From assembly GCA_965233585.1 (NCBI GenBank), contig CBDDTI010000212.1, positions 1-64,000 of the forward strand: a stretch of DNA of 64,000 bases. Reading direction: 5' to 3'. The DNA is from a bacterium. Its GTDB lineage: Bacteria; SAR324; NAC60-12. The notes beneath the pieces were generated by a model that saw only the letters and a list, made by a program, of their open reading frames with translations, was not told the DNA's origin and made no database searches. Of the stretch, positions 4,057-43,885 are shown one piece after another. The position numbers and the translations under genes were made by a program. Within the stretch, counting starts at the first letter, position 1, and each line of letters opens with the position of its first letter.

Positions 4057-5459
4057 ATGAAATTTTTTATTTCGTTTTTTTGTGTCATTTTTTTGACACA
4101 AAATTCCTTTGCCCAAAACCTTTCTTTTTTTGAAAATATTTTAAAAATGTCTTCTGGATTTTACCCCCTCTTTAATTCCACCATCAACTCAACTGTAACC
4201 AACCAATTGACGACCATCAGCTCCACAACTACTGCTTCTACCACAACCACAATCACTACGACTTCCACCGTCCCGTCTACGACCACTACAATTACCACCT
4301 CGAGCTCCACTACTATTACAACTACCTCTACTTCATTGTCTAGCAGCACCACATCCACAACTACTGTTTCTTCTACCTCACCAATCATCATCTCTTCAAC
4401 TTCATCAATTGTCTCTACCACCACCACTGTACCAACCTCCATGCCTACAACTTCAACAACTTCGACTGTATCAACCACTAGTTACACAACCGCAACAATC
4501 ACCTCTAAGACTCCATTAACCACTGTCTCTTCGCCTACATTAATTACCTCAACTACCACTCCTACTACTTCAACCACCAGCCCACATTCACAACAAACCC
4601 CTCCGCAACAATCACCTCTACCATCACCACTTCAAAGCCTTTAATCTCTATTCCAAAGATGACATTTGGTGAATTTTTGCTTGAACAATTTACCTTTGAC
4701 AGTAAGTCTCATTTGTTTCAGTTTTACATTTATTTTCTCTAATATTCATATTACTATTTTGCAGACGGATTTAAATTACTAGTAATTGTTATTCTTATGA
4801 TCGTATGTCTTTTGGTGACGGTCCTAACAGTTAAATTTTGGAGATTGAATAACCAATTAACTCAACACAATCAACCCAATTCTGAAGTAAGTATTTTATT
4901 TTAAAATTTTTGTTTTACAAAAATTATAATTTTCCTATCTATTTTCAGTTTTATGAAATGTCAACACTTCGTCGAGAGAAAGCCAGTCAAGATTCAACTT
5001 CTGAAACAAATGTTGAAGTTTTGGACGCTCCTTCTTCTCCAGCTGTTGTCAATTCAGGACCAAAAACATGCAACAAAATAATGAATACTGATGAATCATA
5101 TTTGACGGATTTGGCGGTAAAAATATTTTTTATTTTCATAATTGTTCATTATAATCATACATTTACTTTATTATTTTTAGAAGTCTCATTTTCAACCAGT
5201 GATTCGCCCAATTCCGTTGTATCCACGTACTACGCTCGAGAGACGACGGGCTCAATATTTCAATGAGTCTTTCAACCCTCTTTTTCCCGTCACCACTGCT
5301 CAAGATGACCCAACTCCGTTATATTCACGTTCTATGTTTGACAGACGACGAACTCAAATTTTCAATGATTCTTCCAACCCTCTTTTTTCCGTCACCACCG
5401 CTCAAGAGGAGTCTTCAAAATCTACTTCTTCTGTTTTGCATCCGCCCACTTCGCTTTAA
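4057..5459 (+). pseudogene. Spliced type I mucin-like membrane protein (4 exons; one frameshift near 4580)
   Basis: Signal peptide MKFFISFFCVIFLTQNSFA and S/T-rich ectodomain. GT-AG introns 4702-4764, 4887-4948 and 5117-5180 join in frame a TM exon (LLVIVILMIVCLLVTVLTV) and a cytoplasmic tail. Confidence 0.8.
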
Positions 5460-6777: not shown

Positions 6778-6993
6778 GTTCTTTTCTTAAATGCGGGTTA
6801 TTTACTCTAAACTCAAATTTACACTGACATTCAAAGTAAAAAATCCTTTTCTTTTAAACCTTTTTAAAGTTTAATGTCTACCACCAACATGCGCTAGTTG
6901 ACGCCCTAAAGGACCCAACACTGTTCATGTGTGAGGGCAAGTGCTCGATACGATCATTGAATTAAAATTTCAATTAAGAAACTAAGCTTGTGA

Positions 6994-7296
6994 TCAAGGA
7001 ATTTAAAAACTCGAAATGACACGAACATTAATTTTCTGTTGATTGAAGTATTTAACGGAGATTAGATGATGTACATTGCATTGTCAACCAAGCACGTGTT
7101 CAAGGAATTTTAAAAACTCAAAATGACATGAACATCAATTTTCCGTTAATTGAAGTATTTAACAAAGATTAGATGATGCACATTGCATCGTCAACCAAGC
7201 ACGTGTCCAAGGAATTTAAAAACTTGAAATAACATGATCATTAATTTTTCATTGATTTAAGTATTAAACAGTGATTAAATGATGCACGTTGCATCA
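6994..7296. repeat. ~2.8 tandem copies of a ~106 bp unit between divergent genes (candidate enhancer/origin)
   Basis: Units start at ~6994, 7100 and 7207; CACGTG ends the first two. Conserved in copy B. Confidence 0.85.
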
Positions 7297-7528: not shown

Positions 7529-8320
7529 ATGCCTGGTCTTAACAATTCTGAATCTCGTCAAGTAACCCATGACTCGCAAGGGTTAAGGGTTACAGTACGT
7601 ATTGCTGATGATTCAACATCAAACTCTAACAACAACAACAACAACAACAACAACGCTGCCGATGATTCAACATCGGACCTCACAAACGTTATAAATAACT
7701 CTGACGATTTGACATCAAGCATCAATTCTGATGATTTAACATCAGTCTCTCCAACTGTTGTACCGATTGGACGAGCCAGGAGGTTAGCGAGACCAAATAA
7801 CGTCTCAAACCCCTCTCCTATCGGTCACGGAGTTGGACGAGGTGGGATTGTCCGCAACACCTCAAATATTTCGAATGTCGGACGTGGTGTTGGTCGAGGT
7901 CAACCAATTCAAAGAAATCCTCAACCATCTACTTCTGCTCCAAGGACTGGGCGAGAGGTTGGAGGCGGTGCTGGCAGGGGTGGAAGATATTTTCACCCTT
8001 ACCGTCGTCCAGCAACTCAAACTTCGGCCTCTACCATAAACGGTACTCGTTCAAGTTCCGTTATTTTTATGGACAGCGATGGGGAAGAAGTTGAGGAGGA
8101 GGAGGATTTTGATGAGACGGATGATGACTACCACTATTCTACTTGTGTCGAACATTTATTCAACAGAAGAAGAGTAATTTTCGATATTAATGAAAGATAT
8201 GCCGAGTCTTTGATTATACGCCAAATACGAGCACTTGAGCGTCAAAATCTTTGGCTTCAAAACGAATGCCAAAGATTAAACACTCAATTGCAACGATGTA
8301 GGGACTTGTTGTCTTCTTAA
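7529..8320 (+). CDS. Low-complexity RGG/acidic protein with C-terminal leucine-zipper-like coiled coil
   Basis: 263 aa ATG ORF intact in both copies, with RGG repeats, RYFHPY, an acidic tract and heptads IRALERQNLWLQNECQRLNTQLQRCRDLL. Confidence 0.8.
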   Translation: MPGLNNSESRQVTHDSQGLRVTVRIADDSTSNSNNNNNNNNNAADDSTSDLTNVINNSDDLTSSINSDDLTSVSPTVVPIGRARRLARPNNVSNPSPIGHGVGRGGIVRNTSNISNVGRGVGRGQPIQRNPQPSTSAPRTGREVGGGAGRGGRYFHPYRRPATQTSASTINGTRSSSVIFMDSDGEEVEEEEDFDETDDDYHYSTCVEHLFNRRRVIFDINERYAESLIIRQIRALERQNLWLQNECQRLNTQLQRCRDLLSS

Positions 8321-8406: not shown

Positions 8407-9126
8407 ATGCCGAAATCTTACGTGTGTCCCGAATGCCAAAAATCATTTGACAGAAAATCTTCTCGCGACAAACATCATTTATTCCGTCATCGTGAAACTA
8501 CAAAATCTCGAGCTCGGATCCCACTTAATCAGTCGTTTCAATGCCCATTTTGTAAGAACGAAGTAAGTTCCTTTAAATCGAGAAAAGATTTAGTCTCACA
8601 CATTGACGCTTCTCATTTAGAGAATTTAAATTATTTATTGCACAAATCTGCACTTAACGGAAAAATCAAATTTTATCGAAAACACATTTTTTCAAAAGAA
8701 ACGCTTCAAGGATTTGTTGCAAATAAAAAAAATAGACAAGAAATAGTTGACGTTATTTGTCACGAACTAAGTAAAACTTTTACGGTTAAAGTTGCCCTTA
8801 TTTTGACAGCGGCGTATCAAATTCCTGATTTGAATTCCGCTGCAGAGAAGAAGGACATTGAACTAGATACTACCAATATTGATGATACCACTGATAAACC
8901 TTCTGATCAGTCATCGCCTCAAATATTGTCCAATGATCGAGATGTCTTTGCTCTAAGAACCAGCTACATTCAATTCACGTCTTTTGATTCATCCCGCTCG
9001 TTAAAAGGCAAAGTCCAAAAATTATTACATAATTTAGTAAATAGAGAAGAAGATTTGTTAATGAGAGGTTCTGGATGGAGATTTGAATCTTTATCTTTTA
9101 GCGATATTCAAATTACTAGCATTTGA
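8407..9126 (+). CDS. C2H2 zinc fingers plus putative terminal protein (N-terminal pPolB region encoded as a separate ORF)
   Basis: Two C2H2 fingers. C-terminal LLMRGSGWRFESL matches the GSGW motif of Maverick pPolB N-termini. Same stop in both copies. Confidence 0.75.
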   Translation: MPKSYVCPECQKSFDRKSSRDKHHLFRHRETTKSRARIPLNQSFQCPFCKNEVSSFKSRKDLVSHIDASHLENLNYLLHKSALNGKIKFYRKHIFSKETLQGFVANKKNRQEIVDVICHELSKTFTVKVALILTAAYQIPDLNSAAEKKDIELDTTNIDDTTDKPSDQSSPQILSNDRDVFALRTSYIQFTSFDSSRSLKGKVQKLLHNLVNREEDLLMRGSGWRFESLSFSDIQITSI

Positions 9127-9179: not shown

Positions 9180-12100
9180 ATGGATTTTATAGAAATTCCA
9201 CGTGATTTAAAGAGATCTAATTGCTTGGAATGGAAAACTCGTTACGATAAATTCAATTTTCTTTATCTGTACATTAGACATCTTTTTCCTGAGGAAACGG
9301 TTTCCGTTGTTGATTTTCGTCAAATGCCGATAAAGTATCTTAAAAAGTTTAATATAAGAGGTTTCAAGTTCCCTCTTCAATTTTGTAATTTAAAAAAATT
9401 TCTAAATAGAAACTCCCATTTACCAATTTCAATTTCAGTTTTTTATGAGAGTGAAGGTCAAGTTTCAAAGTTAGGTTTTTTTACTAATAAAAACAACAAC
9501 AGAAACAAAAACATTTTAAATTTGTTAATGATAAAATATGATCCTGAAATCTCTCTTGAAAATGAATCTCCATTTTCTCGCCTTGCAAAACCAATTCAAC
9601 GCAAGAAAAAATCTTCTTGTAAAAAGATTGTCAATTGTAGTTCTAATGTCAAATTGGGTTTTTCTTCCAAGTTTAAAAAGATCAAGGATTTAAATCAACA
9701 GCACCATTTCTTTAAAATTACCAAAATCCAAGGTTTTTTGAATAATCGGGCCGGACTGTTATCGGGTAAAAAAGCAGCTCAACAAAAGCACATCTATTGT
9801 GAAAAATGTCTGCTACATTTTCGATCCAAATCTAAAAAAGAAAAACACGAAGACACTTGCTGCGATAAACAACGTGCTGTCTACCCAACCAAAAATTCCT
9901 CCATAAGTTTTACCAATCATAAACATAAATTTCATGCTCCTGTTGTCGGATTTTGTGATTTTGAATGTGTACTTCAAAGAAACAAAGAACGATCTAAATG
10001 TCAACTCTGTTTAAAAACTGAGTGTTTGTGTGCTTTTCCCACCAGTGACGATATAAACGTGCATAGACCAGTGGGGTATAGCTTGCTTTTTGTGGATTCG
10101 AATGATGAAGTATTTTTTCAAGAAGAATATGTAGGAGAGGATGCAGCCAAACATTTTTTGGATCGAATGCATTTCTATGAAAAAGTTGTTGACGAAAGAA
10201 AACAAAAATTTAGACATATTGTTAAAAATCAATCTAGTCCGCAAGAATGGCAAATGTATCAAAAAGCGAAAGTTTGTCATATTTGTGGTGGTCAATTCAA
10301 AAAGTACTCTAGAAATTACAGAAAAGTTTTAGATCATGATCACGTAACAGGGAAAATAATGGGCGCAGCTCATTCACTGTGTAACTTGACGAGATCCGGT
10401 CCCTTTCACACTCCAATTTTTTTCCACAACGCTCAAGGGTAAGAAGTCTTAATTGGGTTTATTTATTAAACTAACACAAATTATGTACGCGTTTCAGATA
10501 CGATTTGCATTTAATCGTGGAAGAGTTAAATGTTTCCAAATTTAAGCAAAATGTAAAAGTCTTAGCAAAAAACAGTGAAAAGTTTCGCACCCTTACATTG
10601 GGCAAATTTAAAATTCAAGATTCGTTAGAGCACATTTCTGGCAGTCTAGATGCACTTGTTCAAGATTTGAATCAGACCTCGAATTTTACCTTTCCCATTT
10701 TACAACAAATGGAAAGATATAAAAAAATTCCTGTTCGTCAAAAATCAAAAGCTTTAAAACTTTTAAAAAGAAAAGGCGTTTTTTGTTACGAACATTTCCA
10801 ATCTCTACAAGAGATGAAGGAAAGTCGAAACCTTCCGTCCAAAGACTCTTTTTATTCTGAATTGAACGAAGAACACATTACGGAAGCGGATTATTCCCAT
10901 GCTCAAGAAGTCTTTAAATCGTTCAAATGCAAGAATGTGGTGGATTACATGATGCTCTATTGTTCTTTAGACGTTGTTTTGCTGTGTGAAGCATTTCTTC
11001 AGTACAGAAAAATGGTCATGGAACATTTTCAATTGGATCCTGTTTATTATCTAGGTAAATTTTAATCTTTACCGTTGGATGTATCGTAATACTAAATTTT
11101 GTCTACTTAAATTAGGAATTCCTGGTTTGAGTTTTGATGTCATGCTTATGTTCTTTCAAAATTCAGAACAAGCTAAATCAGATAATAAGCCCACATCCGA
11201 ATCTGAAACCTCCAAACCCCTCGGATCATTAGATGTCTATTCTGATCCTGAAATGGAGCGTTTTTTTACAAAGGGTATCAGAGGTGGGCAAAGTTTTATC
11301 GCTCAGCGTTATGCCAAAGGGAATAGCAATCCTAGAAAAAGCGGCGATCACTTGTTATACATTGATGGTAATTTTATACTGTATTATCTGATAAAATCAT
11401 TTTGTTATGATCCGTACAATTTTTCAGCCAACAACTTATACGGGAGTATGGAAACTTTAAAATTACCAGTTTCTGATTTCCAATGGGTTCCAAAAACTGA
11501 ATTTAAAAAATGGACTGCTGAAGATATTATCAACATTCCTTCGCAAGACGATACTGGATATGCGTTTGAAGTTGATTTGCATTATCCTTCTCATCTTCAC
11601 CAGGTAAATCCGATCTTTGTTGTGATACGTTATTTATTGTTTTGACAAGTTACACGATATCATTTTCAGGCACACGATCAATTTCCGCTGGCTCCCTATA
11701 CAGACACGGTTTCTTTTAAACATCTATCTCCTTACAATCGCCGTTTACTGAAACATCACTGCCCTCGAGATTATAGGAACAAAAGATACCGGAGCAAGAA
11801 ATTGTTGAGCACTTTTTATGACCGAAAAAAGTACGTGGTGCATCTGGAAAACCTGCAGTACTACTTGAAAAAGGGCATGAAGTTGCTGAAGATAAGAAAA
11901 GTCATGAAGTTTCGACAAAAAGCTTTTTTGAAGGAGTTCATCGAAAAGGTCACAAAGCTGCGATCAAATGCTCGCAATGACTTTGAACTCCGGCTTTTTA
12001 AACTTTTTGCCAACTCTACTTTTGGAAAATTTATTGGTAAGTTTTGAGATAAGATAATTTAATGATGTTGAGATTGTAAAAGACGCAAAAGCGTAATTTG

Positions 12101-15100
12101 ACGCAGTCCATTTTCCTGTAAAAAATGAATTTGTTAAATACTCAAACAAATTTGGGGTCATTTTTTGTATTTTTCTTTAATTTTGAGGCACAAGTGCGTG
12201 GTGGTACCGGCGACAGTTGCGGCAGTACGTCCTGCCGGCACCAACCACACACTTGGCCTCATCAAAATCATCATCTTCGACAACATCGGCTTCGTTGGCG
12301 GGGCTGACGTCGACGGGGATGACGTCAGTGGGGGTGACGTCGGCGGGGATGACGTCGGCGGGGATGACGTCGGCGGGGATGACGTCGGCGGGGATGACGT
12401 CAGCGGGGATGACGTCGGCGGGGATGACGTCCGGACGGCCGGCGACAAAGTCGGCGACGGAGGCGGCGGCCGTCCTGATCATCATGATCAAGCCTCTGGC
12501 AAACCGTCTAAGACAGCCACCGCCCCACATCAGTGGTGGACGCGGCAGTGTCTCGCTCAATGGCGGGTCCGGCAGCAATTTGAACCTCTCCTCCTCCTCC
12601 TCCTCCTCTTCCGTCCATTTCGCCCTCAACACCTCGTATTTCCCCCTCCTCATCATTCTTCCCAACTTTACCTTGTCCATTTTCCTTTTCCTTCTCCTTC
12701 TCCTCTTCCTTCTGTAAAATTTGTTTTGAATTTTCCCGCATGGTTTTGTCAATTTTAGAAAATGAATCTCCAAACCTTCACATACCAATTAGCAAATTAT
12801 CTCATAAATATTCATAATATTAAATCAATATTAAATTAAAAATTCGCAAAATGAATTAATCAAGTACGCAAACTTTTGAAAAATCAATTTTTATAAAATG
12901 ATGTGTTTATTTTGTAATCAAAAAGAAAAAGAAAAATGATCAAATTTAAATTTTAATTTTTTTTGTAACTTTTCGAGCTGTAGACGGAGACCACACTGAT
13001 GGAAATGCCGTTACTTGACGCACTTCTGGTGTTGGTGAAGGTTCCACGTGACGATAGGGTGGTGGTTTAGATTTTGATGTTGATTGAGAAGACAAATCAA
13101 ATGACACGCGATGAGAGGTCTGCTTCCGTGACTCCGACTCCGGCCTTTGTGGGACGGATTTGTACGGGGTTCGTGATGGCCAAGCAGGTGCTACGGGTCG
13201 CTCGGAAGATGCCCATGATCCCCCACCCAAGGCCGCAGAAGATGACCATGCTCCACCAGTTTTAGTAGATGACCATGCCCCCTCAGTTTTAGTAGATGAC
13301 CATGCTCCTCCGCCCACAGCCCCAGAAGATGACCATGCTCCTCCAGTTTTAGTAGATGACCATGCTCCCCCGCCCCCAGCTCCGGTAGTAGATGCGCTCT
13401 TCCACGACTCTGGCTCTGATTTTTGGGGGACGGACTTGTACGGGGTCCGTGATGGCCAAGCAGGTGCCACGGAACGTTCGGAAGATGTCCATGATCCCCC
13501 ACCCAAGGCCGCAGAAGATGACCATGCTCCCGCAGTTTTAGTTGATGACCATGCCCCCTCAGTTTTAGTAGATGACCATGCTCCTCCACCCACAGCCCCA
13601 GAAGATGACCATGCTCCTCCGGTTTTAGTAGATGACCATGCTCCCCCGCCCCCAGCTCCGGTAGTAGATGCGCTCTTCCACGACTCCGACCCTGATTTTT
13701 GTGGGACGGACTTGTACGGGGTCCGTGATGGCCAAGCAGGTGCCACAGGACGTTCGGAAGATGACCATGATCCCCCACCCAAGGCCGCAGAAGATGACCA
13801 TGTTCCTCCGGTTTTAGTAGATGACCATGCTCCTCCGCTCCCGGACCCGGTAGTAGATGCGCTCTTCCACGACTCCGACCCTGATTTTTGTGGGACAGAC
13901 TTGTACGGGGTCCGTGATGGCCAAGCAGGTGCCACGGGACGCTCGGAAGATGCCCATGATCCCCCACCCGCAGCCCCAGAAGATGACCATGCTCCCCCAG
14001 CCGCAGCCCCGGCAGAGCTACTGCCAGAAGTCGGACTTGAAGTTGCCTCCTCCTGACCTGATTTTATTACTTTTAACCAAAAAGCTTTGCTCTTTTCCTG
14101 ATCTTTTTTATCCATTTTGATTAAGTGTTTATTTTGTAAGAATTTTTGATGACCGTTTATGTCGGGCTTTAAAAAAGGAATGATTTCAAATTGAAGTAAA
14201 TTATAGCACATTGCTAATTACAGAGGAAAATGAAATGTGATATGGGACGGCTAGTTAGCTGAGGTGATTGCGCACATAATCAATTTTCTTTTTAAAATAA
14301 GTTTTATTCTGCATTTCAGAAAATGTTCGAAATTACTCTGAAGTAATCCTTTGTGGTGATGAACAGAGCTTAAGGAAAGCCAGTCTTGGTCAACACATCA
14401 ACAGTTTTCAAATCATCAATGAAAACTTGGTGGCTGTCAACAAGAAGCCAGCAATAATTGAGCTCAGGAAGCCTTTAGCTGTTGGATTTTCTATTTTGGA
14501 ATTGTCCAAGTTGTTTATGTACAGATCGTATTATGACACGATTCAACAACATTTTGGTGAAGAAAATGTGTCTTTATGTTTCTCAGACACAGATTCTTTT
14601 CTATTAAAAGTAAGATGCAACAACTTGGAAAGGGAAATGAAAAAATTGGAGCACATATTTGATTTTTCAAAGTACCCCAAACAACATCCTCTTTTCGATG
14701 ACAGTAGAGCCAATCAGCTTTTTTATTTCAAAGACGAACTAAAAGGCAGAGCAGCTATTACTCACTTTATAGGCTTACGTCCAAAATGTTATTCTATGAA
14801 AATTACTGATTTTTCAGACAAAAACAAAACAGAAGAAAAGAAAATTTGCAAAGGTTTAAAAAAATCTAGCATAAAAAAGCAATTAACCTATAACGATTAC
14901 AAAAAATGTCTGAAACGAACTGTTCTAATTTACAAATCTTTCAAAAACTTAAGATCGAAGAATCATAAAATTCGGACATGTTTTCAAAGAAAGATTGCGT
15001 TATCAGCAATGGATTCCAAAAGACACATTTTGAATTGCGGATATCATACTTTATCACTAGGAAATTGTCTTATTATCAACAACAAATCATCTAAATGTCC

Positions 15101-15113
15101 TATTTGTAAATAA
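9180..15113 (+). CDS. Protein-primed family B DNA polymerase with HNH/EndoVII insert, 6 exons (~1134 aa)
   Basis: Exons 9180-10438, 10498-11054, 11116-11367, 11428-11603, 11670-12036 and 14320-15113. Splicing rebuilds HNAQGYDLHLI, YIDANNLYG, KLFANSTFGKFIENVR and FSDTDS. CHIC...DHDHVTG...AHSLCN insert. Confidence 0.95.
12177..12680 (-). CDS. Intron-nested antisense gene 1: acidic repeat protein with C-terminal Cys/His cluster
   Basis: This frame stays open in both copies despite indels. DVIPA repeats and C-x8-CRNC-x3-HH. Start codon uncertain. Confidence 0.62.
   Translation of the reverse strand: MDKVKLGRMMRRGKYEVLRAKWTEEEEEEEERFKLLPDPPLSETLPRPPLMWGGGCLRRFARGLIMMIRTAAASVADFVAGRPDVIPADVIPADVIPADVIPADVIPADVIPADVTPTDVIPVDVSPANEADVVEDDDFDEAKCVVGAGRTYCRNCRRYHHALVPQN
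12946..14115 (-). CDS. Intron-nested antisense gene 2: Gly/Ser/Trp repeat protein
   Basis: ~389 aa from MDKKDQEK with GGAWSS and RPVAPAWPSRTPYKSVPQ repeats. The minus frame is intact in both copies, while the opposite-strand frame is broken in copy B (TGA 37324-37326). Confidence 0.78.
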   Translation of the reverse strand: MDKKDQEKSKAFWLKVIKSGQEEATSSPTSGSSSAGAAAGGAWSSSGAAGGGSWASSERPVAPAWPSRTPYKSVPQKSGSESWKSASTTGSGSGGAWSSTKTGGTWSSSAALGGGSWSSSERPVAPAWPSRTPYKSVPQKSGSESWKSASTTGAGGGGAWSSTKTGGAWSSSGAVGGGAWSSTKTEGAWSSTKTAGAWSSSAALGGGSWTSSERSVAPAWPSRTPYKSVPQKSEPESWKSASTTGAGGGGAWSSTKTGGAWSSSGAVGGGAWSSTKTEGAWSSTKTGGAWSSSAALGGGSWASSERPVAPAWPSRTPYKSVPQRPESESRKQTSHRVSFDLSSQSTSKSKPPPYRHVEPSPTPEVRQVTAFPSVWSPSTARKVTKKIKI

Positions 15114-15848: not shown

Positions 15849-16175
15849 TGTAAAATAATGCATTTATACGTTTCTATCACATGATGGTTCTCCGCGCCTT
15901 TCTTTCTTTGTACATGTATATTTTTATGTTGTAAAGTAAAAGACAAAAACCGTTGGATTTTTGTGATGGTATTTTCCCCCTTTCTAGACCGCCCAGACTG
16001 TGCAATGGATGCACTTGTCAGACTGGGGGAAAGTATTCAGTTATATTTGAACTGTCTATGTATACGGACGTGAAAATATATTAATTGCATGATTCAGTGA
16101 ACCAACGAGAACTTATTTAAGTGATCTGCGGAAACTCCGTAGATAACGATCATCCATTGAAACGAGAGTTTTACA
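15849..16175 (+). repeat. 5' LTR
   Basis: TGTAAAA...TTTTACA; direct repeat of 29390-29715 with several substitutions and indels. Confidence 0.95.
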
Positions 16176-16176
16176 A

Positions 16177-16194
16177 TGGTGCATCGTCCGGGAA
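16177..16194 (+). promoter_or_regulatory. Primer-binding site, tRNA-Gly(GCC)-like
   Basis: TGGTGCATCGTCCGGGAA lies 1 nt after the LTR, one mismatch from the complement of the invertebrate tRNA-Gly 3' end as I recall it. Confidence 0.8.
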
Positions 16195-16241
16195 AGACGG
16201 TAATCTCTTCCCTGGGCCATTAAAAAGTAAAAAGATCGGCC

Positions 16242-16463
16242 ATGAGGCGTTGGGTCTCAGAGGACAATTTAATTTGCCAGACCCAGACGCTTGAGGAGAA
16301 ACCAGTGATAGGATTTTGGGATTTGCTATATCCACAACATCCCTTCGTGAGGCTGAAGCCGATAATAGAAGCACACGAAGACGATCAGGTTTTCTGCCTC
16401 GAATGTGGTCGATCCCATACGGCAAGAGAAGTTTGCCGTCCAATTAATCGCGAGAGAGCGTAA
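16242..16463 (+). CDS. Small upstream ORF with C-x2-C-x3-H-x5-C cluster
   Basis: 73 aa ATG ORF fills the leader between PBS and gag and ends 15 nt before the gag ATG. Confidence 0.4.
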   Translation: MRRWVSEDNLICQTQTLEEKPVIGFWDLLYPQHPFVRLKPIIEAHEDDQVFCLECGRSHTAREVCRPINRERA

Positions 16464-16478
16464 TAAAACTTTGAAATC

Positions 16479-18799
16479 ATGACCACCCCTCGTACCCGTG
16501 CTCAAGTTGCCGCCAACCCTACCAATGTCGAACTGAGGACCAAGGCCTTCGACGAAAGAAGAGCCTTATGGCCTCAGGAAGACCAGCTAGAAGAGGAACG
16601 TCTTCGAGCGGTAGGAAAAACTTTGGCTGATGCCTTACTCAATTCTGTAAATGTAGTAGGGGATCTCCAAAAAGAAGATCTTGCCAGATTATTCTGCAAG
16701 ATCTTGACCATCGTAGACTTTCGTCAGTATTTCCTCATTGACGAAACATCGGTCTCTATTCTTCAGAGGCTGATGAATGACTTTGAGGAATACACAAATA
16801 AGTTGGTCGATCCGGATGTCCCGGATCAATATATACGAGACCTCCCTTTGGAGAATCTCAAGGTCATGTTGACGGCAAGGCGGGGTCAGTTGTGTGCCCG
16901 ATTGGAGCTCTTGCGAAGCTCCCACAATCAATTGCAAAGTGGGCAATCGATGTGGGACGATGTTTTCATCGAATATAAAACGGTGGGCATCCAATTTTGG
17001 ATGGAAATATTGGACCTGGCTCTGGTCCTCCGTTATAAGTCTGGGGATGCTCTAAAGGAAGAGCTCCAATCCAGACAAGTGTTCTTACAGGAGAGTTTGG
17101 CCCCTGTAATGGACATGTTTTTGATGGAGGTCCGGGATAAACAAGTCAGGAGACCGATACTTTACATTGATTATATGGTCATGTCACCCCCATCTGAAAC
17201 CCTCCGAGGTGATGATTCAGAAGCCTCAGTGGACACGGTCATCCGACCTCCAAATGAAGAGGAGGTGGGACAGATGGGGGCGAGGGTCGAAGCTATGGCT
17301 CTTGGACCTGTCAATGTACCACCGGCAAACGCGACGCAAGTGCAACCGGAACGGGCAGCGGCTCAGGTTATGGGGAGGCCCGCTGAATTCAAATCTAAGG
17401 GCGCAAGCCTGAAGAAAATAATTTCGCTCCCTGGGGTTTCTTCGGACAGGAAACTTCAAATGCTCTCCCAGCAAATTGATCAGTTGGAGAAGAAGTCATC
17501 TGATCAATTGGACGCTCTTACTGGGAGATTAGGCATTAGAAAAGAGGAAGCGTCCTCGGCGGCCTATGGGGATGAAATGGCCGTCGCTCAATATAATGCC
17601 CTACCCAATGTCCAATTGCCGCCCTTCTTTGGTAATGCCTTGGAGTTCCATAAATGGTGGCAGATGTTCATCTATCTGGTGGATAAAAATCCAAAAATCC
17701 CCCAGATTATGAAACTGCACATTTTACAGAAGTCGTTGAAGGGGAGTGCGGAATACCTTTCACATCAGGTCGCCTTCAGTCCAGCAAGTTATGAGATCTT
17801 GAAGGAGAACGTCAAGGATGCGTTTGACGATTCTGATGCTGCACTCCGCCTCTTGGCAGAACGGGTCAAAGCCTGGCCCGTCCTAAAGAGAAACGACCAC
17901 AAGCAATTAGCGGACTTCACGGGGTTTGCCACCAACTACGTAATGCAGTTAATGCAATTCGAGGATGGTGTGTCTTTTAATCCCCGCAATGTCAAGAACG
18001 AACTCTATGCAAGTTTTACCCACAAATGATGGGTGATTACCAGAGAGATTGGGCGCAAGAGGAATTCTTGAAGGGCAAAAGATCAGACAGGGATCAGGTT
18101 GTCTGGCTTTTGCAATGGCTGAAGGCGAAGCTAAAGGTGGCGAAAGCCTACTATAATGCAGACCCTAACCGCCAACCTATTCCATTGGGTATGCCGTCTG
18201 GAATTGCTATGGAATTCAAGAGCGGCAAAAACCAGACGGCAAAGGGAGGCTCCAACTCGAATGGCGGTAAGGGAGCAACGGCGGAAAAGAAAACGGTTGC
18301 AACGGCAGATGGTTTATATGCCACAACCGAAATTTCCGACGCAGAATACGTTGCTGCCACCAATACTCGAGGAAGGGGGAGGGGCTTCCGCGGAGGAAGG
18401 GGCGCTGCGAGAGGACGCGGCAACCAATCCAATCGCGGAAGAGGAAAACCGCCAAATGGCACCCCTTCTGCTGGACCTCCACAGGGTAGTTATAATGAGG
18501 GAGCACAACAGAATCCCTCAACAAATCCTCAAGGCGGGAAAGTTCAATACCCGAGACCCGAAACGAGTTATGATCTTTGGCCCTGCCTATTTTGCGGACG
18601 ACATCAACATCCAGCAAGATTTTGTCCGCAACATATGAAACCGGATACGGTTTATTTGAAGGCTGTGGAGGCGCTTTTGTGTCTCAACTGCCTTCGAGCC
18701 GGGCATTATGCTTCTTCATGCCCACACCCTGGCTGCTCGATGGAGGGGTGCAATGCACGTCACCATAAACTTCTACATGGACATAAGAAAAACCAGTGA
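16479..18799 (+). CDS. gag: BEL/Pao Gag (frameshift at ~18026)
   Basis: DUF1759-type LPNVQLPPFFGNALEFHKWWQMF; knuckles CLFC..H..C, CLNC..GH..C and C..C..HH..LH. One added A at CACAAATGATG would fuse the two ORFs. Confidence 0.9.
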
Positions 18800-18831
18800 G
18801 AAGCTGGTGGGTCCTCATCGGATCCATCTGA

Positions 18832-21800
18832 GGGGGTGGGGGACCCACCACAGCCAGTGTACAGACAAATCTTGACAATAAGACTATCCCTCTACAAGTG
18901 CCAATATCCGAATGTATATATCAAAATAGTGCTAAAAATTATAAGTGTTCCCCGAATGACCCTGGAAAAGAGACCAGTACCCCTTATTCGTTACTTCCTG
19001 TAGTTCGCGTTCCTGTTCAAACAAAGAAGAACGTTGTCTACTTGCGTGCCTTACTTGACACCGGCTCTACTGCATCCTTCATAACGGTAAGTGCCCTTTC
19101 TAGGATTCCGTCCGTTGTAATTGAATCAGAATTCCCCTTAACTATGTGTACAATACAGGGGGTGAGTCGAGAGCCAAGTAGAAAATTGCGCGTAAATTTG
19201 AAAGTAAAGGGGGGGGGTTTGCCGATAGACTGTTATCAGGTCCCGCGCATAATGCAAGTCAGTCATGGGTTCGAATTGGATGGCCCGACGCTGCTTGCAT
19301 TACAAGAATATCTCTTAAATGAACCGGTGTCTGCACGGGGAGGACAATTAGATCTCCTCATTGGAGTACCGGTTTTATGGAAAATTATTAGGGGAATTCA
19401 TGCGCGTATATCTGATTCGCTTGTCCTTCTCGACACCATATATGGTAATGTCATATGTGGGTCGGCCTCAGGAGTGGGGAAAACGGTTGAGGCACGGGCC
19501 GCGACCGTTGAGGACTTGAACAAACGGGTAGAAAAACTATGGCAGTTAGACTCTTTTCCTAGGGATGATTCGGAATCGAAATTAACGATGGATGAGATAG
19601 CAGCAGTCGAAAGCATGGAGAAAAACCTTAAGTTTGATAAAAGCATAGGGCGCTTTCAGACAAGGTTGTTGTGGAAAGGAAAACCCGATTTGGTAAATAA
19701 TTATGCGGCTGCGAAGGCGAGGTTAGACGGACTAATGAGGCGTCTACGCAAGGATCCTCAAGTTAAAGCCGCTTACAAATCGGTAATTTCGGAATTCATC
19801 GACCAAGCCACGGTAGAATTAGTTACCTGGGAAACCCTCGCTCAGATGCAGGAAGCGTCTAGGGTCGATTTGTATTTCCTTCCACATCGGGCGGTTTATG
19901 ACCCCGGAAGGGTCTCAACAAAATGCCGGGTGGTAATGGACGCCTCGGCAAAAACGGCCACAGGCAAATCTTTGAACGATTGTTTGTTGCCTGGGCCTCC
20001 ATTGCAGCAGCAGATTGCTGCAGTGGAGCTACGCTTTCGAAGAAGAAAGATAGCGTTAATCGGGGATTGCAAGAAAATGTTTTTGCAAGTAATTGTACAC
20101 CCCGATGACCGTCCGTTTCTCCGCTTTCTATGGCATGATCCGGATGATATCCATGCTGTTCCAAAGGTATATCAATTCAGAACTTTGATATTTGGTGCAG
20201 CAGATTCTCCGTTTCAAGCTATCTCATGTTTCCAACGACTCGTGGCCGATAGGAGACGACGAGGAAACCTCTCATCCCTTGAGGAAAGAGTTTGTGAGAC
20301 CATTCTTCGGGACACTTACGTTGACGATATCACCACTGGGGGTGATTCCGTTAACGATGCCTTTGACATGTACAAAGGCCTAAATAAGTTATTAGGATCG
20401 GCTCATTTTAAGATCCACAAATGGGCCACCAATTCCCCTGAACTTCTGAAAAGAATTCCGGAGGAAGAAAGAGCACCTGCAACTGAAAATGAGGATTTTG
20501 ATTGGCTGGAAAGCGATGAAACTTCCTCTTTGGGTATCCGGTGGGACCCCCGCACTGATTTGTTTATATTTAGGCGGTACGTTTCCATCGGACAATTCAA
20601 TGACGACACTAAAACGGCAGTTGCTAGCTTGCTGGCCAGACCCTTCGATCCGCTGGGTCTGATTTCTCCCTTTATTCTTTTGGCGCGGAAGATTCTCAAA
20701 CAAACGTTTGAGGAAAATTTGGGGTGGAAAGATAAATTAACGGGTGAAATGCTCGGGTCGTGGCAACGTTGGCTTTCCTATCTGCCTGATTTGGAAAAGG
20801 TCACGTTTCCCCGACACGTGCCCTTTACGCCAGACACAGAGATTCATGTGTTTGGAGATGCAGCTGCAAATATGGGTCATGGAGTTGCAGCATATGCACG
20901 TACCCCCGTTGGCAACAACGGAAAATTTGAGACGCATCTCCTTTTCGCTAAATCACGCATTAACCCTAAGCGAGACATAACGGTCCCCAGACTTGAGCTT
21001 GTCGCATCTTTGCTTTGCGCGCAAACAGCAGAGATGCTGCACAAAGAGCTTGGGGTTGCTAGGGATAAAATCTATTGTTATTCAGATTCAGAAACTGCGT
21101 TATGGTGGCTAACAAAGCCTCCATCTGCTTTATTGCCGTTTGTTTCGAATCGAGTACAAAAGATTATTGAGCTTGGGTACAGGTTCAATTACGTGAACAC
21201 AGCGGCAAACCCGGCAGATGTTGCAAGCCGTGGCTGCACGCCGGATGAACTCTTGTGTACATTGTGGAAAAAGGGACCCAAATTTTTATCGATCCCCAAT
21301 AGTGAATGGACCCCTCCTAAAATTGACTTTTCTAAAGTGGACAAATTGCAGGAGGTTAAAAAAGCAAATGTCTATAACTATTCTTCCTTTGTCAAAAGAA
21401 TTGGAAGGGGGGCTAATCGTAAAATCGTTAATTTGGAAGATTGCTACGGCGATCATGATGAACTTTTACGCCGCATTGCCATCCTCAAAAGTGTGGTGGT
21501 GTTTTGGCGGGACAAAACCAAAGGTAAAGTTCGAGGTCATTATGACAAATTACTCGCCAGCAGTCATATCCATTTCGCTCGGAAGTATTGGATCAAGCAA
21601 TCGCAGGAAAAGGAATTTCCTGCAGAGCTTGCTGCTTTACAAAAGGGGCAGCCTATCCCAACCGGATCTAGGCTTCTTCCTTTGAATCCTCAGCTAGACG
21701 ATGAAGGAATAATGAGGGTACACGGCAGGGTGGTGGAATCAAAGATTTCCCCGGAACAAAGGTATCCCATCATTTTACCCAAAAATCATACGTTTACATC

Positions 21801-22923: not shown

Positions 22924-23276
22924 CTGTCAAAAAGGGGAACAATGGAGGGGGATGAATAGCGGGGACTGAGCAAGTGCAAAGTCACCCTGCAGATGCAATT
23001 TTGACGGGAAAAATTTATGTGTCTGCGCTCATGTTGAAAAGGAACACACATGACAGGTGCAGGGGTAAATGAACTTTCTGTCAGAAACAGGCAACATCTG
23101 CCGTTGCCTTTTGACAGAATGTACAAAGTCTAATGCCTGTGCAACTTTTATGACCTCCTTTCATTGAATGCATGTGCATGAATTCCGTTATTTGCACAAG
23201 CAAACAGGGTAAACAACTCAGTAACCTAGATTGAAGTCATTAACTTTCTCCGATTTTTTGGGGAGATAAAATCCCC

Positions 23277-23311
23277 TATAAAAGGCTTGAGTTTTGGCTT
23301 CAAAATCATTC
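23277..23311 (+). promoter_or_regulatory. Internal TATA plus initiator for the first accessory gene
   Basis: TATAAAA 23277-23283 and TCATTC 23306-23311 at canonical spacing; ATG at 23369. Confidence 0.65.
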
Positions 23312-23368
23312 ACTTCTGAGTTGTCTTTGCATTTGGACAAGTTAAAGAAGAAACTTAAACCTTCAACA

Positions 23369-27014: not shown

Positions 27015-27397
27015 ATTTGTCAGATAAAATAAAATTACAAAACAGCTACATTCATTCTGACTTCTTTCAATTTTTGGGCGCAATTTTGTTAGGATATTTG
27101 GCTCTTGATTTATCTACTTTTGTACATTAGGGGTTACTGATGAAGAGTTGTTTCGGCTACCGCGCCAGGTCCTGTATACCTCCTTTGTATAACAAAGGAA
27201 AATTCCCCGGGGGGAAAATTAACGGTTTTTCCCTTTTTTGCCTCCCTTTGGCGCGTGTCTAGACACACGTCGCGTCACAAATCCGTGAAACATTCGTTGG
27301 GGATACTTTTTCACCCAACACATACGGATTTTCTCATTCAGTTAGGATCCGCAGCTTGATTCGAAAGGTTATTTAAACGACATCAAATATTTTAACC

Positions 27398-29221: not shown

Positions 29222-29389
29222 AGTTTTGATGTTAAGGGAAGCTTGTTGGAAAGGACCTCCATTCGGACTTGGCAACCCGAGTGCCTCTGGTGCCTGATCA
29301 GTACTATGAAGTAAATTGGGAGTCCTCTCCAACGACCTTCGGAGGTGCATATCAAGACTTAGCGGATAACCATCAGGTGACGGGGACAT

Positions 29390-32832: not shown

Positions 32833-35800
32833 ATGGATTTTATAGAAATTCCACGTGATTTAAAGAGATCTAATTGCTTGGAATGGAAAACTCGTTACGA
32901 TAAATTCAATTTTCTTTATCTGTACATTAGACATCTTTTTCCTGAGGAAACGGTTTCCGTTGTTGATTTTCGTCAAATGCCGATAAAGTATCTTAAAAAG
33001 TTTAATATAAGAGGTTTCAAGTTCCCTCTTCAATTTTGTAATTTAAAAAAATTTCTAAATAGAAACTCCCATTTACCAATTTCAATTTCAGTTTTTTATG
33101 AGAGTGAAGGTCAAGTTTCAAAGTTAGGTTTTTTTACTAATAAAAACAACAACAGAAACAAAAACATTTTAAATTTGTTAATGATAAAATATGATCCTGA
33201 AATCTCTCTTGAAAATGAATCTCCATTTTCTCGCCTTGCAAAACCAATTCAACGCAAGAAAAAATCTTCTTGTAAAAAGATTGTCAATTGTAGTTCTAAT
33301 GTCAAATTGGGTTTTTCTTCCAAGTTTAAAAAGATCAAGGATTTAAATCAACAGCACCATTTCTTTAAAATTACCAAAATCCAAGGTTTTTTGAATAATC
33401 GGGCCGGACTTTTGTCGGGTAAAAAAGCAGCTCAACAAAAGCACATCTATTGTGAAAAATGTCTGCTACATTTTCGATCCAAATCTAAAAAAGAAAAACA
33501 CGAAGACACTTGCTGTGATAAACAACGTGCTGTCTACCCAACCAAAAATTCCTCCATAAGTTTTACCAATCATAAACATAAATTTCATGCTCCTGTTGTT
33601 GGATTTTGTGATTTTGAATGTGTACTTCAAAGAAACAAAGAACGATCTAAATGTCAACTCTGTTTAAAAACTGAGTGTTTGTGTGCTTTTCCCACCAGTG
33701 ACGATATAAACGTGCATAGACCAGTGGGATATAGCTTGCTTTTTGTGGATTCGAATGATGAAGTATTTTTTCAAGAAGAATATGTAGGAGAGGATGCAGC
33801 CAAACATTTTTTGGATCGAATGCATTTCTATGAAAAAGTTGTTGACGAAAGAAAACAAAAATTTAGACATATTGTTAAAAATCAATCTAGTCCGCAAGAA
33901 TGGCAAATGTATCAAAAAGCAAAAGTTTGTCATATTTGTGGTGGTCAATTCAAAAAGTACTCTAGAAATTACAGAAAAGTTCTAGATCATGATCACGTAA
34001 CAGGGAAAATAATGGGCGCAGCTCATTCACTGTGTAACTTGACGAGATCCGGTCCCTTTCACACACCAATTTTTTTCCACAACGCTCAAGGGTAAGAAGT
34101 CTTAATTGGGTTTATTTATTAAACTAACACAAATTATGTACGCGTTTCAGATACGATTTGCATTTAATCGTGGAAGAGTTAAATGTTTCCAAATTTAAGC
34201 AAAATGTAAAAGTCTTAGCAAAAAACAGTGAAAAGTTTCGCACTCTTACATTGGGCAAATTTAAAATTCAAGATTCGTTAGAGCACATTTCTGGCAGTCT
34301 AGATGCACTTGTTCAAGATTTGAATCAGACCTCGAATTTTACCTTTCCCATTTTACAACAAATGGAAAGATATAAAAAAATTCCTGTTCGTCAAAAATCA
34401 AAAGCTTTAAAACTTTTAAAAAGAAAAGGCGTTTTTTGTTACGAACATTTCCAATCTCTACAAGAGATGAAGAAAAGTCGAAACCTTCCGTCCAAAGACT
34501 CTTTTTATTCTGAATTGAACGAAGAACACATTACGGAAGCGGATTATTCCCATGCTCAAGAAGTCTTTAAATCGTTCAAATGCAAGAATGTGGTGGATTA
34601 CATGATGCTCTATTGTTCTTTAGACGTTGTTTTGTTGTGTGAAGCATTTCTTCAGTATAGGAAAATGGTCATGGAACATTTTCAATTGGATCCTGTTTAT
34701 TATCTAGGTAAATTTTAATCTTTAACGTTGGATGTATCGTAATACTAAATTTATTCTACCTAAATTAGGAATTCCTGGCTTGAGTTTTGATGTCATGCTT
34801 ATGTTCTTTCAAAATTCAGAACAAGCTAAATCAGATAATAAGCTCACATCCGAATCTGAAACCTCCAAACCCCTCGGATCATTAGATGTCTATTCTGATC
34901 CTGAAATGGAGCGTTTTTTTACAAAGGGTATCAGAGGTGGGCAAAGTTTTATCGCTCAGCGTTATGCCAAAGGGAATAGCAATCCTAGAAAAAGCGGCGA
35001 TCACTTGTTATACATTGATGGTAATTTTATACTGTATTATCTGATAAAATCATTTTGTTATGATCCGTACAATTTTTCAGCCAACAACTTATATGGGAGT
35101 ATGGAAACTTTAAAATTACCAGTTTCTGATTTCCAATGGGTTCCAAAAACTGAATTTAAAAAATGGACTGCTGAAGATATTATCAACATTCCTTCGCAAG
35201 ACGATACTGGATATGCGTTTGAAGTTGATTTGCATTATCCTTCTCATCTTCACCAGGTAAATCCGATCTTTGTTGTGATACGTTATTTATTGTTTTGACA
35301 AGTTACACGATATCATTTTCAGGCACACGATCAATTTCCGCTGGCTCCGTATACAGACACGGTTTCTTTTAAACATCTATCTCCTTACAATCGCCGTTTA
35401 CTGAAACATCACTGCCCTCGAGATTATAGGAACAAAAGATACCGGAGCAAGAAATTGTTGAGCACTTTTTATGACCGAAAAAAGTACGTGGTGCATCTGG
35501 AAAACCTGCAGTACTACTTGAAAAAGGGCATGAAATTGCTGAAGATAAGAAAAGTCATGAAGTTTCGACAAAAAGCTTTTTTGAAGGAGTTCATCGAAAA
35601 GGTTACAAAGCTGCGATCAAATGCTCGCAATGACTTTGAACTCCGGCTTTTTAAACTTTTTGCCAACTCTACTTTTGGAAAATTTATTGGTAAGTTTTGA
35701 GATAAGATAATTTAATGATGTTGAGATTGTAAAAGACGCAAAAGCGTAAATTGACGCAGCGCGAATAGTAATTCAGTAAAAAATGAATTTGTTAAATACT

Positions 35801-38737
35801 CAAATGAATTTGGAGTCATTTTATATATTTTCTTTAAATTTGAGACACAAGTGCGTGGTGGTACCGGCGACAGTTGCGGCAGTACGTCCTGCCGGCACCA
35901 ACCACGCACTTAGCCTCATCAAAATCGTCATCGTCGTCGTCATCAGCTTCGTTGGCGGGGCCCTCATCGAAATCGTCATCGTCATCATCTTTGGTGTCAT
36001 CGGCTTCGTTGGCGGGACCGATGACGTCGACGGGGATGACGTCCGGACGTCCGGTGATGGAGCCGGCGATGGAGGCGGCGGTCGTCCTGATCATCTCGAT
36101 CAAGCCCCTGGCGAACCGTCTGAGACGGCCACCGCCTCCCATCAGTGGTGGACGCGGTGGTGCCTCTTCTGATGGCGGGTCCGGCAGCAGCTTGAACTTC
36201 TCCTCCTCCTCTCCTGTCCATTTCACCCTCAGTACCTCGTACCTCCCCCTCCTCATCATCCTTCCCAACTTTCCTTTGTCCATGACCTTTTCCTTCTCCT
36301 TCTCCTCTTCCTTCTCCAAAAAATTTGTTTTGAATTTTCCCGCATGGTTTTGTCAATTTTAGAAAATGAATCTCCAAACCTTTACATATTAATTAGCAAA
36401 TTATCTCATAAATATTCATAATATTAAATCAATATTAAATTAAAAATTCGCGAAATGAATTAATCAAGTACGCAAACTTTTGAAAAATCAATTTTTATAA
36501 AATGTTGTGTTTATTTTGTAATCAAAAGGAAAAAGAAAAAATGATCAAATTTAAATTTTAATTTTTTTTGGTAACTTTTCGAGCTGTAGACGGAGACCAC
36601 ACTGATGGAAATGCCGTTACTTGACGCACTTCTGGCGTCGGTGAAGGTTCCACGTGACGATAGGGTGGTGGTTTAGATTTTGATGTTGATTGTGAAGACA
36701 AATCAAATGTCACGCGATGAGAGGTCTGCTCATTAGATTTGGTAGGCTTCCATGATTCCGGCTCCGATCTTTGTGGGACGGATTTGTACGGGGTCCGTGA
36801 TGGCCAAGCAGGTGCCACGGGACGCTCGGAAGATGCCCATGATCCCCCACCCAAGGCCCCAGAAGATGACCATGCTCCTGCAGTTTTAGTAGATGACCAT
36901 GCTTCCCCAGTTTTAGTAGATGACCATGCTCCTCCACCTACAGCCCCAGAAGATGACCATGCTCCTCCAGTTTTAGTAGATGACCATGCTCCTCCGCCCC
37001 CAGCTCCAGCAGTAGATGTGCTCTTCCACGACTCCGAGCCTGATTTTTGTGGGACGGACTTGTACGGGGTCCGTGATGGCCAAGCAGGCGCCACGGGACG
37101 CTCGGAAGATGCCCATGATCCCCCACCCAAGGCCCCAGAAGATGACCATGCTCCTGCAGTTTTAGTAGATGACCATGCTTCCCCAGTTTTAGTAGATGAC
37201 CATGCTCCTCCACCCACAGCCCCAGAAGATGACCATGCTCCTCCAGTTTTAGTAGATGACCATGCTCCCCCGCTCCCAGCTCCGGCAGTAGATGTGCTCT
37301 TCCACGACTCCGACCCTGATTTTTGAGGGACGGACTTGTACGGGGTCCGTGATGGCCAAGCAGGCGCCACGGGACGCTCGGAAGATGCCCATGCTCCTCC
37401 ACCCGCAGCCCCAGAAGATGACCATGCTCCTCCAGTTTTAGTAGATGACCATGCTCCCCCGCCCCCGGCTCCGGTAGTAGATGTGCTCTTCCACGACTCC
37501 GACCCTGATTTTTGTGGGACGGACTTGTACGGAGTCCGTGATGGCCAAGCAGGTGCCACGGGACGCTCGGAAGATGCCCATGCTCCTCCACCCGCAGCCC
37601 CAGAAGATGACCATGCTCCTCCAGCCGCAGCCCCAGTAAAGCTACTGCCAGAAGTCGGACTTGAAGTTGCCTCCTCCTGACCTGATTTTATCACTTTTAA
37701 CCAAAAAGCCTTGCTCTTTTCCTGGTCTTTTTTATCCATTTTGACTTGGTGTTTATTTTGTGAGAATTTTTGATGACCGTTTATGTCGGGCTTTAAAAAA
37801 GGAATGATCTCAAATTGTAGTAAATTATAGCACATTGCTAATTACAGAGGAAAATGAAATGTGATATAGGACGGCTAGTTAGCTGAGGTGATTGCGCACA
37901 TAATCAATTTTCTTTATAAAATAAATCTTATTCTGCATTTCAGAAAATGTTCGAAATTACTCTGAAGTGGTCCTTTGTGGTGATGAACAGAGCTTAAGGA
38001 AAGCCAGTCTTGGTCAACACATCAACAGTTTTCAAATCATCAATGAGAACTTGGTGGCTGTCAACAAGAAGCCAGCAATAATAGAGCTCAGGAAGCCTTT
38101 AGCTGTTGGATTTTCTATTTTGGAATTGTCCAAGTTGTTTATGTACAGATCGTATTATGACACGATTCAACAACATTTTGGTGAAGAAAATGTGTCTTTA
38201 TGTTTCTCAGACACGGATTCTTTTCTTTTAAAAGTAAGATGCAACAACTTGGAAAGGGAAATGAAAAAATTGGAGCACATATTTGATTTTTCAAAGTACC
38301 CCAAACAACATCCTCTTTTCGATGACAGTAGAGCCAATCAGCTTTTTTATTTCAAAGACGAACTAAAAGGCAGAGCAGCTATTACTCACTTTATAGGCTT
38401 ACGTCCAAAATGTTATTCTATGAAAATTACTGATTTTTTAGACAAAAACAAAACAGAAGAAAAGAAAATTTGCAAAGGTTTAAAAAAATCTAGCATAAAA
38501 AAGCAATTAACCTATAACGATTACAAAAAATGTCTGAAACAGACTGTTCTAATTTACAAATCTTTCAAAAACTTAAGATCAAAGAATCATAAAATTCGGA
38601 CATGTTTTCAAAGAAAGATTGCGTTATCAGCAATGGATTCCAAAAGACACATTTTGAATTGCGGATATCACACTTTATCACTAGGAAATTGTCTTATTGT
38701 CAACAACAAATCGTCTAAATGCCCTATTTGTAAATAA
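32833..38737 (+). CDS. Protein-primed DNA polymerase B, copy B, 6 exons
   Basis: Exons 32833-34091, 34151-34707, 34769-35020, 35081-35256, 35323-35689 and 37944-38737; same splice sites as copy A. Confidence 0.95.
35834..36283 (-). CDS. Intron-nested antisense gene 1, copy B
   Basis: Same frame and Cys/His tail; different repeat expansion (GPANEADDD instead of DVIPA). Confidence 0.62.
   Translation of the reverse strand: MDKGKLGRMMRRGRYEVLRVKWTGEEEEKFKLLPDPPSEEAPPRPPLMGGGGRLRRFARGLIEMIRTTAASIAGSITGRPDVIPVDVIGPANEADDTKDDDDDDFDEGPANEADDDDDDDFDEAKCVVGAGRTYCRNCRRYHHALVSQI
36558..37739 (-). CDS. Intron-nested Gly/Ser/Trp repeat protein, copy B
   Basis: Intact from MDKKDQEK; repeat arrangement differs from copy A. 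Confidence 0.78.
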   Translation of the reverse strand: MDKKDQEKSKAFWLKVIKSGQEEATSSPTSGSSFTGAAAGGAWSSSGAAGGGAWASSERPVAPAWPSRTPYKSVPQKSGSESWKSTSTTGAGGGGAWSSTKTGGAWSSSGAAGGGAWASSERPVAPAWPSRTPYKSVPQKSGSESWKSTSTAGAGSGGAWSSTKTGGAWSSSGAVGGGAWSSTKTGEAWSSTKTAGAWSSSGALGGGSWASSERPVAPAWPSRTPYKSVPQKSGSESWKSTSTAGAGGGGAWSSTKTGGAWSSSGAVGGGAWSSTKTGEAWSSTKTAGAWSSSGALGGGSWASSERPVAPAWPSRTPYKSVPQRSEPESWKPTKSNEQTSHRVTFDLSSQSTSKSKPPPYRHVEPSPTPEVRQVTAFPSVWSPSTARKVTKKN

Positions 38738-43779: not shown

Positions 43780-43885
43780 ATTCAATATAATAAAAGATTA
43801 CGTCGGTTTATTTGTAAAATCAGTCAAATTTTGAACTTCATTCAATAAACAATGGAATTATGTTCAAAAATTAGATTGGATTAAA

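Follow-up and report, generated by a model that had tools for sequence, protein, structure and literature searches.

The closest known case of genes carried inside the intron of a conserved viral gene is, by analogy, that of herpesviruses, in which the essential terminase gene UL15 is split by a GT-AG intron that contains two open reading frames (ORFs) on the opposite strand, UL16 and UL17, and whose load differs between lineages (PMC3079670). Nested genes of Drosophila evolve faster, are favoured on the opposite strand, which probably avoids mis-splicing, and show less co-expression with their host gene than neighbours do (PMC3814207). Among Mavericks/Polintons (adintoviruses), the core genes of intact vertebrate elements and of a nematode element are described as intronless (PMC8097293; bioRxiv 10.1101/2022.07.12.499685). 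Here we describe a Maverick/Polinton element, present as two rearranged copies (A and B) in the first 64,000 nucleotides of contig CBDDTI010000212.1 (assembly GCA_965233585.1; hereafter the window), in which intron 5 of the protein-primed family B DNA polymerase gene (pPolB) contains two ORFs on the minus strand. We find it fairly probable that this GT-AG stretch is spliced and represents a short intron enlarged by one or two selected, opposite-strand ORFs, which would have their own promoters and would code for accessory, non-essential proteins that act on the host cell.

Intron 5 is the fifth counted from the ATG at 9180, the other four being GT-AG introns of 59-66 nt, and in both copies (A and B) the six exons contain no stop and add up to 1134 codons. 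It interrupts what we take to be polymerase motif B. This motif is unbroken in 26 of the 120 listed exon 6 homologues (62-72% identity), and since in these relatives it runs on without a break and agrees at every residue with the exon 5 end and the exon 6 start, the predicted boundaries (12036/14320) are right as far as such a comparison can tell. Moreover, the intron has U2-type features (GT-AG ends and a pyrimidine tract) and its removal restores the protein. It contains eight internal acceptor-like words and no AATAAA on the polymerase strand. An earlier note on this DNA had described a large intron holding two GC-richer minus-strand ORFs, and this holds exactly at 12037-14319: the guanine-plus-cytosine content is 61% in ORF1 and 55% in ORF2, as compared with 24-30% in the non-coding parts of the intron, 40% in exon 5 and 32% in exon 6. 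A related 24-nt AT-rich motif, nearly confined to the intron of this subfamily, lies downstream of each ORF (12123-12146 and 12849-12872) and is possibly a 3'-end or protein-binding element. Four sequencing runs from two samples behave as DNA, with contigs that cross the introns and no joint matching an intron, and are silent on expression.

Comparison between copies, which the earlier note had proposed, indicates that both ORFs are under purifying selection. The ratio of nonsynonymous to synonymous substitution (dN/dS) is 0.42 [0.30-0.59] for ORF1 over 13 copies and 0.34 [0.24-0.50] for ORF2 over 11 copies, the brackets being codon-bootstrap 95% intervals that exclude 1 and are drawn from pairs that are not independent; the polymerase exons give 0.07-0.13. 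When all six frames were compared, the proposed minus frames had the lowest dN/dS and no stops. The length of gap runs is divisible by three for 14 of 20 runs in the ORFs vs 3 of 17 in the non-coding intron parts (Fisher p=0.003), and the tandem-repeat periods in the ORFs (15, 27, 33, 60, 87, 189, 276) are all multiples of three. Both ORFs lie wholly inside another gene's intron and are under selection, as is expected of nested genes. For ORF2 the longest frame starts at 14211, but the ATG common to the copies is at 14115. The features are collected in the table.

Table. Features of the polymerase locus and its nested ORFs (window coordinates; copy A unless stated).
Feature	Position	Strand	Remarks
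pPolB exon 1	9180..10438	+	Endonuclease_7-like match inside
pPolB exon 2	10498..11054	+	Follows 59-nt intron 1 (10439-10497); weak DNA_pol_B_2 match (E 0.049) on overlapping fragment
pPolB exon 3	11116..11367	+	Follows 61-nt intron 2
pPolB exon 4	11428..11603	+	Follows 60-nt intron 3
pPolB exon 5	11670..12036	+	Follows 66-nt intron 4; ends within motif B; dN/dS 0.07
Intron 5	12037..14319	+	2283 nt; GTAAGT...TTTCAG; phase 1
pPolB exon 6, to stop	14320..15113	+	Rest of motif B, motif C; 128 homologues
Nested ORF1	12177..12680	-	167 aa; basic/acidic N-terminus, amphipathic helix at ~residues 54-80, repeat of 15 nt, Cys/His motif conserved at the C-terminus
Conserved non-coding block upstream of ORF1	12681..12800	-	Common to one-ORF subfamily; likely promoter/5' untranslated region
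AATAAA	12906..12911	-	Possible poly(A) signal ~35 nt past ORF2 stop; weak evidence in AT-rich DNA
Nested ORF2	12946..14115	-	389 aa; rich in Ser, Gly, Ala and Thr, with 26 Trp; nested repeats of 27, 33, 60, 87, 189 and 276 nt; motif conserved at the C-terminus
Conserved non-coding block upstream of ORF2	14116..14290	-	Kept in contigs C224 and C476 and in the decayed C288 copy; likely promoter
Copy B intron 5	35690..37943	+	2254 nt
Copy B ORF1	35834..36283	-	149 aa; open frame
Copy B ORF2	36558..37739	-	Open frame

The site was then compared across the assembly, in which 25 long introns are spanned on both sides. Two-ORF introns (2254-2322 nt) account for 11 of them and single-ORF introns (1077-1351 nt) for another 11; the others are an intron of 1583 nt without the start of ORF2, one of 2018 nt in a diverged copy with variants of both ORFs, and one of 941 nt in a decayed copy. 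The earlier note had suggested looking for relatives with an empty or different intron 5, and both kinds exist. All 14 sister copies examined (63-72% protein identity) have a short GT-AG intron of 55-74 nt at the same position and phase, and a more remote group has no intron at the site in 9 of 9 junctions. A single assembly therefore presents four states of the site, namely no intron, an empty intron of 55-74 nt, an intron of ~1.2 kb with one ORF and an intron of ~2.3 kb with two. In a quick tree of exon 6 (101 rows, the intron state being unverified in database rows that start after the site), 22 intronless proteins lie outside a clade that unites all intron-bearing copies and four intronless rows. 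The simplest reading, which we hold with some reserve, would be a single gain of the short intron with few losses, followed by enlargement in one sub-clade. No related locus was confirmed in viral, metagenome or genome contigs. In the decayed copy C288:44529-45469, intron 5 contains a remnant of ORF1 and, under an ORF2-type upstream block, an unrelated Pro-rich ORF of 96 aa on the minus strand.

From their sequences, ORF1 and ORF2 are two orphan protein families under selection: neither gave a usable match in the ESM Atlas, a Pfam match above cut-off or any match among PDB sequences. The single ORF of the one-ORF subfamily is the ORF1 orthologue: it sits at the same place, its upstream block is homologous and it ends in the same motif. 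A profile of this C-terminal motif retrieved 26 segments in the assembly, with nothing else below E 0.28, and 15 proteins among 1.84 billion, and a full-length ORF1 profile retrieved 48 proteins, all unnamed members of the family (8000 candidates scored). Members have in common an N-terminus that is first basic and then acidic, an amphipathic helix and, in the tail, conserved Cys, Tyr and His residues, and this Cys/His tail could bind metal. In 10 of 14 sequences, copy A not being among them, the best 18-residue helix window scores above 95% of shuffles. A Gly-Gly stretch that precedes the helix in the two-ORF subfamily, and is missing in most other members of the family, resembles what we take to be the consensus of the adenovirus protease site. 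The AlphaFold model of ORF1 (predicted template modelling score 0.24) consists of two helices and a small hairpin, is non-globular and matches no viral structure at E<=0.001 (Foldseek). Our guess is that ORF1 might be a membrane-binding adaptor with a metal-binding tail. One database protein, P0131, fuses an ORF2-like start to an ORF1-like end.

ORF2, which has 7 database matches, is 58% Ser/Gly/Ala/Thr, and its Trp residues are mostly 9-11 residues apart, a spacing that argues for likeness to GW182. We guess that it might be a disordered scaffold of Trp motifs. GW and WG dipeptides are absent from ORF2 of copies A, B and C523, and WG occurs 13 times in C224a, 10 times in C224b and 8 times in P0179; a PPxY motif is not conserved across the family. 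GW182/TNRC6 and viral WG/GW suppressors such as SPMMV P1 are likewise low-complexity, Gly/Ser-rich proteins with regularly spaced Trp (PMC4615383, PMC2904775), and the sister variants with 8-13 WG dipeptides add to the resemblance. In contrast, ORF2 of the window has neither dipeptide and no Pfam match to UBA, PAM2 or RRM domains, and a host Argonaute was not found in the partial assembly. By this analogy Argonaute binding by ORF2 is conceivable, though we would rather expect it not to occur. A wider scenario, in which the polymerase intron would be an anti-silencing module with ORF2 as a GW182 mimic whose regularly spaced tryptophans would occupy host Argonaute, convergent transcription would switch between replication and counter-defence, and the intron block would be exchanged by recombination in an arms race, seems doubtful to us.

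Copies A and B are 99.2% identical in exon 5 and 98.2% in exon 6, but 86.4% in ORF1 and 93.7% in ORF2. The statement of the earlier note that the nested frames survive repeat indels between nearly identical exons is thus correct for the exons and for the frames, which are both open, whereas a repeat indel is present in ORF1 only; the repeat count of ORF2 is equal, and its two copies differ by one 18-nt indel outside the repeat and by 1 nt in a final A-run. The nested genes were also called fast-changing, and indeed ORF1 has the highest dN of the element and ORF2 the third highest. Nevertheless, this is not special to the intron, as the non-nested gene at 7529-8320 has a dN/dS of 0.46; that of a minor-capsid-like gene is 0.33. 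Of 72 informative sites in exons 1-5, copy B has the state of copy A at 54 (54 vs 18), whereas in intron 5 it agrees with the C476 copy at 122 of 165 and with A at 43, with the switch near the donor. Copy B therefore likely acquired its intron by recombination, lineage-specific acceleration being the alternative. Since this is the likely origin of the copy B intron, the contrast between intron and exons of A and B is inflated.

In the reading that we favour, transcription of the polymerase gene by host RNA polymerase II would continue across the intron, which the spliceosome would excise without using the internal acceptor-like words, while the nested genes would be read the opposite way from their own upstream blocks. 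The intron would have been gained short and then enlarged in one sub-lineage, as one of few sites at which a gene-dense element can take up extra DNA without breaking a core gene, and the opposite strand would avoid mis-splicing and early polyadenylation. The contents would be mostly inherited, with occasional exchange between close copies by recombination. The earlier note had proposed that the intron may couple expression of the nested genes to polymerase transcription; because opposite-strand genes cannot come from the polymerase RNA, any coupling would be interference of convergent transcription or double-stranded RNA rather than co-expression. A profile search of the assembly found no ORF1-family match in the sister elements with short introns, and these gave no match to the ORF2 motif either. 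Since neither family was detected there, the nested genes are likely accessory and non-essential. They would likely act on the host cell.

Several observations weigh against this reading. The nested ORFs are predicted from the DNA sequence, and no homologue, domain or fold (Pfam, ESM Atlas, PDB, Foldseek) supports a host-interaction function. The tree support for a single intron gain is modest (SH-like approximate likelihood ratio test, SH-aLRT, 83 in a quick tree). Frame disruptions in other copies, which the earlier note had set, together with a lack of antisense transcripts, as evidence that would overturn its idea, do occur: among two-ORF copies ORF1 is broken in 3/11 and ORF2 in 2/11 vs 11/143 in controls (a count that leaves out 10 integrase rows in which the query itself is the odd copy), and the single ORF is broken in 6/11 copies of the one-ORF subfamily vs 4/124 in controls. 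The breaks of the one-ORF subfamily look private and lie mostly in C/G runs or repeats, which fits either assembly error or decay after insertion. Lastly, in 8/9 copies the plus strand also has a frame across the ORF2 repeat that stays open over 313-337 codons, with a dN/dS of 0.29-0.34. This frame shares third positions with ORF2, and together with the capacity of repeats to amplify stop-free units and the many frameshifted copies it could mean that the ORFs are stop-poor by-products of GC-rich tandem repeats, or that the ORF2 repeat is truly read on the plus strand. We consider this very unlikely, given that selection is seen in unique flanks too (ORF2 N-terminus, dN/dS 0.30 in the minus vs 1.23 in the plus frame), that motifs outside the repeats are conserved (in 34 distinct ORF1 tails and in diverged ORF2 relatives) and that the plus frame has no Met in 9/9 copies and is interrupted in copy B. 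Even more improbable is a mobile intron or small transposon of the introner type that invaded the polymerase, although introners occur in Maverick-like elements of dinoflagellates (PMC11957031). Because 31 of the 32 loci similar to intron 5 adjoin polymerase exons 5/6 and no terminal inverted repeat is present at the intron ends, the insert does not behave as a mobile intron. Elsewhere in the assembly only one 299-bp duplicate was found, in a rearranged locus, and searches with the insert gave no transposase or endonuclease match and one Rfam match at chance level. A mobile intron, for which copies at unrelated sites and terminal repeats were expected, is thereby largely refuted.

Two other explanations accept the nested genes as real. 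The earlier note saw the intron as a cargo slot, and in its strict form this would mean that unrelated host-derived genes are swapped, as in the GC-rich cargo region of nematode Mavericks. Part of this idea finds support, as the load varies between 0, 1 and 2 ORFs, copy B shows one likely block exchange, P0131 joins parts of both families, the region is high in GC and low in conservation, and the 96-aa ORF is unrelated to either family. This last ORF, however, is known from a single broken locus. Moreover, ORF1 is one family in 24 of the 25 fully spanned long introns, with a remnant in the 25th, the distances between introns correlate with those between exons (Spearman 0.72-0.80) and no host homologue or host-like gene for the intron content was found in the assembly or in databases. 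The likely exchange is between close copies only and did not involve host-derived genes. As every filled intron has an ORF1 of one family, with ORF2 present in some and absent from others, the contents are mostly inherited, and an exchangeable slot for unrelated cargo is unlikely. The nested genes might instead be virion or replication components, such as a core or membrane-active protein that the adenain protease would cleave. The conserved helix of ORF1, the Gly-Gly before it and the several membrane-active accessory proteins that adintoviruses encode (PMC8502044) would suit this role, which we nevertheless hold to be rather unlikely: the short-intron sisters have capsid, protease and integrase genes while lacking matches to either nested family, and most of the ORF1 family does without the Gly-Gly site.

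The setting of the locus is that of a eukaryotic mobile element. The contig is eukaryotic, although the assembly (12 Mb, 747 contigs) is filed as a prokaryote genome, 92% complete, and eukaryotic mobile elements occur on dozens of its contigs. The window contains the split family B polymerase, a Maverick integrase (Pfam rve match, E 2.4e-9, at 45022-46053), an A32/FtsK-type ATPase and an adenain-like protease (Pox_A32, E 8.7e-4, and Peptidase_C5, E 0.015, neither reaching its curated cut-off), and TBP-like and TFIIB-like genes. The polymerase assignment combines a weak DNA_pol_B_2 match on a fragment with the homologues of exon 6, some of which carry PF03175. Thus pPolB, integrase, ATPase and protease, by which Mavericks/Polintons are recognised, are all present. 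No Pfam match to a double jelly-roll major capsid protein was obtained, and the gene labelled capsid-like presumably is one, from its position. The TBP-like and TFIIB-like proteins (43237-44605) are kept in all three intron-bearing subfamilies. Upstream of the polymerase, a C2H2 ORF (8407-9126) has a C-terminal stretch containing GSGW, which we take to be a feature of Polinton polymerase N-termini; a stop and a frame change separate it from the polymerase ORF in 7/7 copies viewed, and the two may represent a split polymerase or an unusual joining. Copies A and B are separated by a BEL/Pao retrotransposon (15850-29715) that carries a baculovirus-F-like envelope gene. Its flanks are non-adjacent Maverick parts without a matching target duplication, which suggests that the copies were joined by recombination between BEL/Pao long terminal repeats. 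The left accessory region of the element (4057-5450) contains an intron-containing Thr/Ser-rich gene with a hydrophobic start that resembles mucin-like membrane proteins, and a 107-bp tandem repeat of about three copies (6990-7295) precedes the gene at 7529. The short-intron sister Mavericks (C401, C98, C593 and C212:65701-70978, the last just past the window end) carry a tandem pair of capsid-like genes, and their modules are arranged in another order.

In comparison with known systems, the element resembles Mavericks/Polintons in its pPolB, rve integrase, A32-type ATPase, adenain-like protease and capsid-like genes, but the five GT-AG introns of its pPolB depart from the intronless core described for them, and their accessory regions flank the core modules instead of lying inside a core gene. 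Surveys that rely on ORFs would overlook or wrongly score this lineage, given that the core genes of Mavericks are described as lacking introns. High GC, low conservation and variable gene content are common to intron 5 and the nematode Maverick cargo region (bioRxiv 10.1101/2022.07.12.499685); the latter lies between terminal repeat and integrase and carries host-like, horizontally moved genes, whereas here the region is intronic, with one or two orphan families. The nested genes of Drosophila are similar in being on the opposite strand and in evolving faster than the including gene (PMC3814207), but here the including gene belongs to a mobile, virus-like element. Genes nested in a Maverick polymerase intron are not described in the open literature searched, as far as its texts were accessible (including PMC10748475, PMC8502044 and bioRxiv 10.1101/809541; subscription journals and Repbase were outside the search). 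The layout of an intron with two nested genes, known from herpesviruses, is well supported here and is new for Mavericks within that literature, and the two selected orphan families are candidates for how Mavericks deal with animal hosts. No homology with UL15 is claimed, and splicing has been shown by RT-PCR for UL15 only. The host gene here is the protein-primed DNA polymerase of an integrating element of ~23 kb, empty and intronless sister states exist in the same assembly and the nested genes are fast-evolving orphans. The four states found in one assembly may thus offer a rare snapshot of a compact virus-like genome gaining genes within an essential gene, in parallel to UL15.

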